A DNA stretch of 21,692 bases from a virus (taxonomy: Duplodnaviria; Heunggongvirae; Uroviricota; Caudoviricetes), in IMG/VR virus record IMGVR_UViG_2562617086_000013; one strand, written 5' to 3'. Below are positions 455 to 2,662 of the stretch, in pieces. The notes under the pieces were generated by a model. That model saw only the letters and a program-made list of their open reading frames with translations, was not told where the DNA came from and did not search any database. How positions within the stretch are numbered: the first letter of the stretch is position 1; every line of letters begins with the position of its first letter. The translations under genes and the position numbers were made by a program.

Positions 455-1164
455 TGGCGAAAAATGACTTTAAAGCGTTTGCAACTGATCGAAATGCCAA
501 TGTTATGTCGCAGGAGGAATGGGAAGCGTTGCCTGCGCTTATATCCGGATTTACAGCAGGGAAAGCATCCAGTGCGCAAGTCAATAAGGTTATTCGGCAG
601 GCCAGCTTTATTGCTGCAGCTCTGGCCCAGTTTGTAAGTGATAAAACGCAACGGGATGTGCTTGATAATGGTGATCTGCCCGGTTTTGTTGAATTGCTGG
701 GATCGGGGTTTGCTGTTGAATACCTGAGCCGCAAGAATCCGTTTGGCGATATCAAATCGGACGGCACGGTGAAAACGGCTCTTCAAAACCTTGGTTTGGG
801 AGAAGCGGCAAAACGGGATGTGGGGACAGGGGAAAATCAGATACCGGACATGGCCTCTTTTGCCAGTGGTAATGGATGGATGAAATTACCCAACGGGAAA
901 ATCCTGCAATATGGTCGTGGTGCGGTTACGCCGACATTATCGACGCAAACAATGAGAATTACATTCAGCATCCCTTTCCCCAAAAAAGCGGACTGCGCCA
1001 TGCTTACTCATTCTGGTGATGGCGGTGCGCCTTTAGGCGCTGGGCGAGGGTTCGTGATGACTGCAGAAGGCCCAACGTTAACCGGCTTTAATTCTGCTTA
1101 CAGAACGTCATCAACCAGCGACACGGTATCGATGAATTACAGTTGGTGGGCTGTTGGTGAGTAA
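454..1164 (+). CDS. phage tail fibre protein: constant N-terminal part (to about codon 112) plus variable C-terminal part (StfP-like)
   Basis: Position upstream of tail-fibre assembly genes and Pin invertase; the crossover site lies inside the ORF at 779-804 (codons ..QNLGLGE..); the C-terminal region is Gly/Ser/Thr-rich as in fibre tips. ATG at 454 preferred over the track start at 436. Confidence 0.7.
779..804. repeat. left crossover site of Pin-type invertible segment (hix/gix/pix-like 26-bp imperfect palindrome)
   Basis: CTCTTCAAAACC TT GGTTTGGGAGAA fits the Din-family pattern (..AAACC nn GGTTT..). A 14-bp core TTGGTTTGGGAGAA is identical to the reverse complement of the site at 2637-2662. 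Confidence 0.6.
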
Positions 1165-1184
1165 TTTTATTCAGGGTGATTTAT

Positions 1185-1628
1185 ATGGACGAATATGTTT
1201 ATAGCGCAAGGCATAATGCTTTTTTCCCTGTGGATATGATTGATAAATATAAATCAGAGGGATGGGATTTATCAGACGCTAAGGAAGTAAATCAAAATAT
1301 TATCAGTGAGTTTATGGCTGAACCGCCACAAGGAAAAATCCGTATTGCCGGAGATGATGGGCTGCCTGCGTGGGCAGATATTCCTCCACCCACGCATGAA
1401 GAGCTTATTGAAATTACTGAATCAGAAAGACAGCTACTAATTAACCAGGCCAACGAATACATGAACAGTAAGCAATGGCCCGGTAAAGCGGCTATTGGTC
1501 GTCTGAAAGGTGACGAACTGACGCAATATAATTTGTGGCTGGATTATCTGGACGCACTGGAGCTGGTCGATACTTCCGGTGCGCCAGATATTGAATGGCC
1601 TACGCCTCCGGCAGTTCAGGCCAGATGA
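1185..1628 (+). CDS. tail fibre assembly protein (Tfa family)
   Basis: Tfa-like C-terminus (..LWLDYLDALELVDTSGAPDIEWPTPPA) that mirrors the convergent partner gene; ATG at 1185 preferred, GTG at 1176 possible. Confidence 0.8.
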   Translation: MDEYVYSARHNAFFPVDMIDKYKSEGWDLSDAKEVNQNIISEFMAEPPQGKIRIAGDDGLPAWADIPPPTHEELIEITESERQLLINQANEYMNSKQWPGKAAIGRLKGDELTQYNLWLDYLDALELVDTSGAPDIEWPTPPAVQAR

Positions 1629-2193
1629 CATCCGGCGCGGTGCTGGTATCTGTTGCCGTCACCGCGTCAATGTAATCCAGCACGGCGTTAAGTCGGGTTG
1701 TTTCTGCCTGAGTCAGTTTCCGTCCGGCCTGTAACTTCAGCTGAATCAGACTAATGGAAGCCATTGCTGCATCAATCAGTGATTGGCGCTGTGCTTCTGC
1801 CGCGTCTACTGCGGCACTGTGTTGTGCCTCAGTGTCTGTCACCCATTTCTCACCATCCCATTTATCGTATGGCGTTAACGGTGAAATCGTGACATAACCG
1901 TCTTTGATGGCACCGATATAATCCACTGTAACAGCTGCGCCATTTTCGATTGAGTAAACAGTCTCATTGCGATGGTCTTCTTCATGGCTCCATCCCTTAC
2001 CTGTAAATACTGCCACTCTTCCCGGAATGTTTTCGCCAGGGTCAATACCAGTGGAACAGGCGGGCATACTTACGCCAGTATTAATATATTCATCAGACCA
2101 GCCCGTATACTCAGATGTTTCAGCATCATAATAAAAACAACGCATATCGCCCGGCACTGTAGCCAGCCCATTTTCATCAAAAACAGGTTTCAT
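1600..2193 (-). CDS. tail fibre assembly protein (Tfa family), alternative copy inside the invertible segment
   Basis: 197-aa ORF beginning MKPVFDENG..., with the conserved Tfa C-terminus (..LDYIDAVTATDTSTAPDVIWPELPEA); its 3' end overlaps the convergent tfa gene by 29 bp. Confidence 0.8.
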   Translation of the reverse strand: MKPVFDENGLATVPGDMRCFYYDAETSEYTGWSDEYINTGVSMPACSTGIDPGENIPGRVAVFTGKGWSHEEDHRNETVYSIENGAAVTVDYIGAIKDGYVTISPLTPYDKWDGEKWVTDTEAQHSAAVDAAEAQRQSLIDAAMASISLIQLKLQAGRKLTQAETTRLNAVLDYIDAVTATDTSTAPDVIWPELPEA

Positions 2194-2649
2194 TATTTAG
2201 CCCTCACCAGAAAGTTAAATGCAATATTTCGCGGTCTGACTGCAACAAAATTCACACCATCACCCACAGAGTTACTGGTGAAATTAAATCGTGAAAATCC
2301 TGGCTGATTTCCGGCGATGCCATCATGAAAGTTAATTGCGTGTCCCGCACCTTCGCCTATATTCCCGGCAAACTGAGAAAAGTTTGTAGCTGCCTGCCAG
2401 CTTAATAATTCGCGACCACCGTCTGCACCTCGCCCGTCATCCCAGATACGAATGAAATCACCGCGGGCTTCAGGTAATACCAGCGAAGGAAACACTTTCG
2501 CCAGCACAGGATAATCAGTGGCAGAGAATTTCGCGCCGTTGAACTTCAAAAACACCATACAGGACCAGCTGTCGATTACAGTATTTGGCATTGCAGCGGA
2601 CGGCCAGAAGAACGGAACGCCAATAGCTGGAGCACCTTCTCCCAAACCA
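2193..2649 (-). CDS. alternative tail-fibre C-terminal variable segment (StfE-like); silent in this orientation, would be fused in frame to the constant part after inversion
   Basis: Minus-strand ORF whose codons ..NVGLGE.. span the right crossover site in the same phase as ..NLGLGE.. at the left site. The track's extension to 2690 crosses the recombination site and is probably fortuitous. Confidence 0.6.
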
Positions 2650-2662
2650 ACGTTTATGAAAA
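2637..2662. repeat. right crossover site of Pin-type invertible segment
   Basis: TTCTCCCAAACC AA CGTTTATGAAAA; dyad-symmetric half sites around a central AA dinucleotide; inverted copy of the 779-804 site. Confidence 0.65.

Follow-up and report, generated by a model that had tools for sequence, protein, structure and literature searches.

What keeps a tail-fibre inversion switch going in a prophage that appears to have lost the means of building a phage particle? The question is raised by a stretch of 21,692 nucleotides catalogued in IMG/VR as a virus of the class Caudoviricetes (record IMGVR_UViG_2562617086_000013; below, the window means this whole stretch). Near its start lie a short tail-fibre gene, two genes for tail-fibre assembly chaperones (tfa), a second fibre tip on the opposite strand, and pin, which encodes a serine DNA invertase. 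A first reading, made from the sequence alone, had taken this group of genes for a Pin-driven host-range switch. The explanation that we favour, with a probability of roughly 85%, is that an e14-type Pin invertible segment is riding in Sp1/CP-933H, a decayed prophage of Escherichia coli O157:H7.

Both orientations of the segment among O157:H7 genomes

Comparison of positions 2-3400 with complete genomes identified the O157:H7 E. coli chromosome as the source of the window, many complete O157:H7 genomes matching this part with zero mismatches and a single 1-bp gap (position 108). Judged from these matches, the locus is the thrW-linked prophage remnant named "prophage Sp1, lambda-like" in strain Sakai and CP-933H in EDL933.

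We compared the window sequence and a version of it flipped in silico with 5,426 complete E. coli genomes. Full-length matches were obtained in 86 complete genomes for the window orientation and in 118 for the flipped construct, the latter including Sakai, EDL933, TW14359 and EC4115. The loci compared in detail showed no mismatches and one 1-bp gap. Since the flipped construct is matched at its full length, the junctions in these 118 genomes lie exactly at the predicted crossover cores. The two orientations also separate near-isogenic records, such as same-size cattle isolates, with 110 differing from 109 and 107 (all of ~5,442,850 bp), 111 from 112, and 149 from 147 and 148, as well as the two members of a patient pair, TT12A and TT12B. 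In the assembly of AR-0428 (GCF_008727175.1) both are found together, the flipped one in the chromosome and the window one in a linear record of 46.9 kb. The latter (NZ_CP044147.1, "plasmid pAR-0428-2") carries the chromosomal Sp1 region and resembles an alternative-haplotype contig that was wrongly labelled as a plasmid.

Inversion does occur and is still going on, with switches arising over times as short as those of strain handling. As the sequence-only reading had led one to expect of a locus with an intact pin, both orientations are present in near-identical genomes, seen here at the population level in assemblies. The crossover, which it had held to be precisely mappable, falls in real genomes at the very core used for the in-silico flip.

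What is exchanged by the inversion can be read from the organization of the segment (table 1). The fibre gene that is expressed in the window orientation joins a constant part of 113 amino acids (aa) to a variable tip, tip A, which carries a Gp53-like C-terminal domain (Pfam PF21882, residues 144-235, E=5.8e-12). For the constant part, a match was found to positions 1-112 of a short tail-fibre PHROG with 231 positions (E=9e-64), and the fibres of three intact E. coli myophages have N-termini 97.3% identical to it. The possibility that this 236-aa fibre is a truncated one was considered and rejected, because its N-terminus fits those positions of the family and aligns to intact phage fibres from residue 1.

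The alternative tip, tip B, lies within the segment at 2193-2648 on the minus strand and is silent as a fibre in the window orientation. Its open reading frame (ORF) has a short leader of its own, MMPFARYFCIFINVGLGE, which begins at 2690, outside the segment. Flipping 791-2650 in silico produced an uninterrupted fibre ORF of 264 aa, equal in size to the coding sequence annotated in Sakai (ECs_0280, 795 nt). In either orientation, a Caudo_TAP gene follows directly downstream of the fibre gene, and alternative in-frame C-terminal tips are available. The 3' ends of the two tfa genes overlap by 29 bp (1600-1628).

The ORF layout thus agrees with what had been proposed from the sequence alone: one site inside the expressed fibre gene and the other inside a silent C-terminus, an inversion of ~1.86 kb that swaps in-frame tips together with their cognate Tfa chaperones, and two tfa genes with a 29-bp overlap. 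In the window orientation, the constant 113-aa N-terminus is joined to the Gp53-like tip, with the TfaP/YfdK-like chaperone next. In the flipped orientation of Sakai and EDL933, the same N-terminus carries the StfE-like tip, with the TfaE-like chaperone next, and the Gp53-like tip is left behind the short leader ORF beside pin.

Table 1. Features of the fibre switch and its surroundings, in window coordinates
Feature	Position	Strand	Description
Chimeric ORF upstream of the fibre gene	143-454	+	residues 1-21, P-like replication N-terminus; residues 22-103, baseplate end
Fibre gene expressed in the window orientation	454-1164	+	236 aa; constant part 454-792, variable tip A 793-1164
Left recombination site, pixL-like	779-804	+	CTCTTCAAAACC-TT-GGTTTGGGAGAA; crossover core TT 791-792
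Invertible segment	793-2648	.	1856 bp between cores; 1860 bp counting both cores
Tail-fibre assembly chaperone for tip A	1185-1628	+	147 aa, TfaP/YfdK-like; Pfam Caudo_TAP E=2.7e-30
Tail-fibre assembly chaperone for tip B	1600-2193	-	197 aa, TfaE-like; Pfam Caudo_TAP E=2.3e-27
Alternative fibre tip B	2193-2690	-	StfE-like, tail-collar type; PHROG tail-fibre C-terminal matches E=3.7e-52
Right recombination site, pixR-like	2637-2662	+	TTCTCCCAAACC-AA-CGTTTATGAAAA; crossover core AA 2649-2650
pin, serine DNA invertase	2717-3271	+	184 aa, intact; adjoins the segment
Putative recombinational enhancer	2735-2806	.	pin nt 19-90; position homologous to the P1 cin enhancer, and synonymous constraint

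Crossover sites, invertase and putative enhancer

The two 26-bp sites are inverted relative to each other, and their cores, TT and AA, are reverse-complementary and hence matching. In each of them two imperfect 12-bp half-sites stand around the 2-bp core in a manner that fits the TTnTCnnAAACC pattern of P1 cix and Mu gix. An exact copy of the 14-mer TTGGTTTGGGAGAA is present at 791-804 (plus strand) and another at 2637-2650 (minus strand), with none elsewhere in the window, even when two mismatches are allowed; 0.13 matches are expected by chance, and none of 100 shuffled sequences had two occurrences. Moreover, the site pair is the top inverted repeat within positions 1-4200, where it extends to 20 nt (95%; 786-805 and 2636-2655). 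The codons at the left site, in the plus-strand fibre ORF, read ..Q-N-L-G-L-G-E.., and those at the right site, in the minus-strand ORF, read ..I-N-V-G-L-G-E.., with the first T of the 14-mer at codon position 2 in both. The sequence-only reading had reported hix/gix-like inverted sites with a common 14-bp core in the same codon phase, and we recovered all of these features. From the end of the right site to the start codon of pin there are 54 nt.

Pin has the domain structure of the Hin/Gin/Cin/Pin family, namely an N-terminal resolvase domain with the serine nucleophile (Pfam Resolvase, E=8e-52) and a C-terminal helix-turn-helix (HTH_7, E=1e-15). It keeps the catalytic residues Y5, R7, S9, D64, R65 and R68, and its closest solved structure is that of the Gin invertase (3UJ3/4M6F, E=5e-94, residues 1-181). 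In the public annotation of O157 genomes the recombinase is already named pinE or DNA invertase.

A Fis-dependent enhancer had been expected in the 5' part of the invertase gene, and a predicted element could be located there from sequence comparisons. The P1 record annotates the Cin enhancer at cin nt 19-90, which a gap-free alignment of pin, gin and cin maps to the interval given in table 1. Two Fis-like cores of 15 nt are found in this interval, TGTCAACAAATGACC at 2739-2753 and GTGCAGGATGCGAGC at 2787-2801, their centres being 48 bp apart. Such a spacing, together with the pattern Y-4 R-3 ... Y+3 R+4, is known for the Fis sites of invertase enhancers. The enhancer of these systems contains two Fis sites (PMC3798978).

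Among 76 distinct invertase genes, synonymous identity was 0.89-0.96 at codons 9-12 and 0.75-0.89 at codons 25-27, compared with 0.38 at codons 31-184. Leaving aside positions consistent with Met or Trp, all third-codon positions with a conservation of at least 90% in these genes fall in the two Fis cores, and the sole run of at least 8 nt with at least 85% conservation in the whole invertase gene is 2741-2754. As a whole, the enhancer region is 75-76% identical in nucleotide sequence to gin and cin, which is not above the rest of the gene (72-73%), the constraint being confined to the two cores. We read this constraint as the footprint of a DNA element that overlaps the coding sequence.

With these parts, inversion would proceed as follows. 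Pin dimers would bind both 26-bp sites, and Fis bound to the enhancer in the 5' end of pin would form an invertasome with them; cleavage at the two 2-bp cores, followed by rotation, would leave the 1.86 kb inverted. Inversion by invertases of this family requires Fis and supercoiled DNA. At the present locus, the flipping is probably performed by the local Pin and not by a trans-acting invertase, and it probably depends on Fis.

Kinship with other Pin loci

We scanned one genome per species for relatives of Pin and obtained 79 loci encoding proteins with 62-97% identity to it. A hix-like site was found 71-142 bp before the invertase start (most often 71-107 bp) in 46 of the 55 loci for which upstream sequence was available. 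In 27 of these 46, an inverted partner with a matching core (AA/TT or GA/TC) lies 1.3-4.5 kb further upstream. The 54-nt spacing between site and invertase recurs in Mu and in many relatives. The sites are conserved in relatives, a point on which the sequence-only reading had made its own validity depend.

Contigs of 22 of the 79 loci stop 64-205 bp upstream of the invertase start, several of them inside the hix-like site, as would be expected if mixed orientations break short-read assemblies. In our numbering, the loci with such early-ending contigs are L012, L015, L016, L018, L022, L026, L031, L033, L034, L037, L039-L041, L046, L049, L060, L061, L066, L068 and L071-L073.

The leader of the silent tip (2651-2690, minus strand) begins with an in-frame ATG ("MP...") that was found in 20 of 45 loci, mostly of the subgroup with the 54-nt spacer. 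Besides e14 and Sp1, it is present in Mu (L005, ~5026-5054) and in several enterobacterial loci with that spacer. With 20 of 45 loci, the leader ORF was rejected as a family-wide feature, and the conservation of its ATG may simply reflect the invertase promoter on the other strand.

The nearest known system is the P segment of e14 with its invertase PinE, in E. coli K-12 (Plasterk and van de Putte 1985, as cited in PMC4272514; Goldberg et al. 2014, PMC4272514; Kirigo et al. 2025, PMC12529663). PinE is 96.7% identical to the Pin of the window, and 26 of the 26 positions of the right site and 24 of the 26 positions of the left site are shared. The gene order is also the same (fibre, tfa, then tfa, tip on the opposite strand, and pin), as are the 29-bp overlap of the tfa genes and the leader ORF beside pin, and the segments are of similar length, 1.80 kb in e14 and 1.86 kb in the window. 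In contrast, identity is only 35% and 44% for the fibre tips, the latter value being that of tip B to StfE, and 54% (TfaP, over 112 aa) and 65.5% (TfaE) for the chaperones. The constant N-terminus of the fibre is unrelated save for its last ~25 residues. The two elements also differ in their insertion site, thrW for Sp1 and icd for e14, and upstream of the fibre, where e14 keeps baseplate genes (ymfQ and others) that are deleted in Sp1. Because the invertase and the sites are orthologous, while the cargo tips and the locus differ, sequence comparison places the locus as a mosaic sister of the e14 P segment and not as e14 itself.

Another difference is found downstream of pin, where e14 has mcrA and Sp1 has a gene for a protein with a LEM-3-like GIY-YIG nuclease domain (3329-4102, minus strand; 257 aa; PHROG 5356). 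The latter occupies the position of mcrA, a restriction enzyme gene, and may be a swapped defence or cargo gene.

The G segment of Mu with Gin and the C segment of P1 with Cin are more distant parallels. They share with the window the recombinase family, the anatomy of the 26-bp sites, the enhancer at invertase nt 19-90 and the arrangement of a constant fibre N-terminus with alternative tips that have their own chaperones; Mu also shares the 54-nt gap between site and invertase start. However, host range is altered by the switch in Mu and P1, both of them complete phages, whereas Sp1 is without anything to carry the fibre, and the Sp1 fibre is much shorter (236 or 264 aa according to orientation).

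Counterparts of the fibre N-terminus, of both sites and of the TfaE-like chaperone occur in the three intact myophages mentioned above, vB_EcoM-611R5, -683R1 and -606R2, which are e14-like and Mu-tailed and, unlike Sp1, retain a full baseplate and tail module. In 611R5 (L088, ON470588, 7001-9542), a truncated invertase (annotated with 104 aa) remains and one tip is largely deleted, so that decay has gone in the direction opposite to that in Sp1. A further record, that of phage vB_EcoM-689R6 (L004, ON470584.1), is described as a "partial genome"; among its genes are icd, mnmA, hflD and other genes of the host. The record appears to represent an e14-like prophage, Mu-type in its tail genes, together with flanking chromosome, and its invertase is 98.4% identical to Pin.

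A fibre switch in a prophage without virion genes

The Sp1 remnant measures 10.6 kb. Its gene content runs int', cI, cro, cII, O', P' and then directly the fibre switch, and we found no terminase, head, tail or baseplate genes in it. The passage from replication genes to fibre genes takes place within the chimeric ORF of table 1, the stop codon of which overlaps the start of the fibre gene (ATGA). Residues 22-103 of this ORF correspond to the final 82 aa encoded by a DUF2612-like baseplate gene, with the junction at ~206/207, and its PHROG matches divide at residue ~20. The PGAP annotation has two "replication protein" fragments at this place.

Positions 207-805 have 97.7% identity to the end of the baseplate gene and the start of the fibre gene in the intact phage vB_EcoM-611R5, with no difference between the protein tails. 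The counterpart in 611R5 is a gene of 226 aa that stands after baseplate_J and before an almost identical fibre gene. It follows that a deletion with its junction at ~206/207 removed everything from gene P to the last 82 codons of the baseplate gene.

Judged from this gene content, Sp1 cannot build a particle, and its module is, for phage biology, an active relic that is unable to change host range. Of the Pin-driven host-range switch named in the sequence-only reading, the Pin-family inversion mechanism held in every testable respect; the host-range part did not, the virion genes being gone and the baseplate gene cut. The label does not fit the locus because Sp1 has no particle whose host range could switch.

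The mechanism, the family and the annotation of the pin gene itself were already known, and the system is not new. What our analysis adds is confirmatory: flipping of the Sp1 copy at the predicted core has been demonstrated between isogenic O157 genomes, the junction of the deletion has been placed, and the two Fis cores have left a footprint at synonymous sites. A literature search for inversion of Sp1/CP-933H in O157 returned no specific description.

How the fibre genes may be expressed is suggested by their position. The early rightward genes are followed immediately by the fibre operon, which is on their strand and separated from them by no terminator-like signal, and for this reason the fibre operon is probably transcribed by read-through from the early rightward (cro-cII-O-P') operon. 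Such a position could place the full-length fibres under SOS/repressor control. In a scan for promoters and terminators, matches were no commoner than in shuffled sequences, and no promoter is put forward for pin, the fibre operon or the leader ORF.

Three 1-bp deletions, at 108, 4847 and 11577, distinguish the window from O157 strain 9000. The one at 108 (CTCGAC-TGAC vs CTCGACCTGAC) falls in the remnant of replication gene O and is not shared by strain 9000 or by either EDL933 assembly, the RefSeq genomes with which detailed comparisons were made. The three deletions may be real variants or sequencing errors, their contexts being homopolymer-like.

Beyond Sp1 comes the P4-like element Sp2, a satellite that spans ~6630-15400 and is likely a defence hotspot. 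The RefSeq annotation of the matching genome lists among its genes an "ABC-three component system", an AAA ATPase, psu/sid/delta-like and Icd-like genes and a primase-helicase. Its integrase gene is interrupted by a 1.31-kb insertion sequence (IS) element of the IS629/IS1203 type (7151-8460, minus strand). Strain 9000 is without this insertion in the Sp2 integrase and has a copy of the same type of element in the left part of Sp1 instead.

Several observations weigh against our explanation of the locus, or at least limit it. The word relic is argued from missing genes, and a new function on the host side would be compatible with their absence. The differences among assemblies show that the segment flips, but neither its rate nor which invertase acts. 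A trans-acting invertase is possible, since PinQ also flips the e14 segment in K-12 (Kirigo et al. 2025, PMC12529663). The two assemblies labelled EDL933 are of opposite orientation (CP124740 vs CP008957), but CP124740 (5.14 Mb) is much smaller than the other record and its strain label may be loose. Finally, the degenerate Fis motif is unspecific, 3.3% of the window positions scoring equally and 28 pairs with the 48-bp spacing being present in the window, so that the enhancer call draws on homology to P1 and on synonymous-site constraint rather than on demonstrated binding.

Among the alternatives, the one that survives best is nonetheless improbable in our judgement. It holds that the host has co-opted the module as a recombinase-gated anti-phage device, in which the flipped state would make a leader-tip protein that blocks phage adsorption. 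This protein would consist of the leader and the Gp53-like tip (136-137 aa in all) and would be encoded beside pin. The model comes from e14, where inversion of the P segment by PinQ or PinE creates StfE2, a fusion of the stfE leader with the Gp53-like C-terminus of StfP that blocks adsorption of T2 (Kirigo et al. 2025, PMC12529663). The O157 locus is built like that of e14, the two leaders are nearly identical, and annotations of flipped genomes include the analogous ORF (ECs_0283 / WP_001115553.1, 136 aa). Additionally, the switch module is the sole late-region content kept in Sp1, a survival that anti-phage use could explain, and it adjoins the GIY-YIG nuclease gene in the mcrA position.

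On the other hand, the O157 leader-tip analogue is only 31% identical to StfE2, and the recombination site itself fixes 9 of the 18 residues of the leader, while the leader ATG has the restricted occurrence described above. There is no credible promoter for the leftward leader ORF, given that promoter-like sites are no commoner than in shuffles. The O157 lineage is too clonal for selection to be detected (no mismatches in ~200 genomes), and the published effect of StfE2 was obtained largely by expression from a plasmid. That O157:H7 keeps the flipping module for bet-hedging against phages, as has been claimed for StfE2 of e14, is an analogy that may hold but that we would not expect to.

Far less probable is a host-range switch that still works, with its fibres used by a viable phage, be it Sp1 itself or another O157 prophage supplied with them in trans. 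The fibre gene, both tips, both chaperones and pin are all intact, and the constant N-terminus is, as noted, close to that of fibres from intact E. coli myophages. These facts are set against a prophage without terminase, head, tail and baseplate genes, in which the upstream baseplate gene amounts to 82 codons fused to a replication stub. Scarcely credible, lastly, is that the two orientations are assembly artefacts or products of RecA-dependent recombination between inverted repeats: assemblers may take arbitrary paths through repeats and one orientation variant stands on a dubious "plasmid" record, but the shared repeat of 14-20 bp is too short for efficient homologous recombination or for misleading long-read assemblers, the junctions fall exactly at hix-type cores, sites of this architecture, with matching cores, are found again across Enterobacterales, and the Mu, P1 and e14 homologues are experimentally established (record annotations; Goldberg et al. 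2014, PMC4272514).

Our default reading remains that of an e14-type Pin segment preserved in Sp1 as an active but functionless relic. Its flipping explains why O157:H7 assemblies disagree at Sp1, with two different "tail fibre" proteins annotated at one locus and short-read contigs breaking at the site. For annotation, the locus is useful as a clean and fully mappable example of a textbook serine-invertase switch. If the anti-phage role of the e14 P segment extends to Sp1, the module would represent a host-side defence in a major pathogen; otherwise, it would be a neutral relic.

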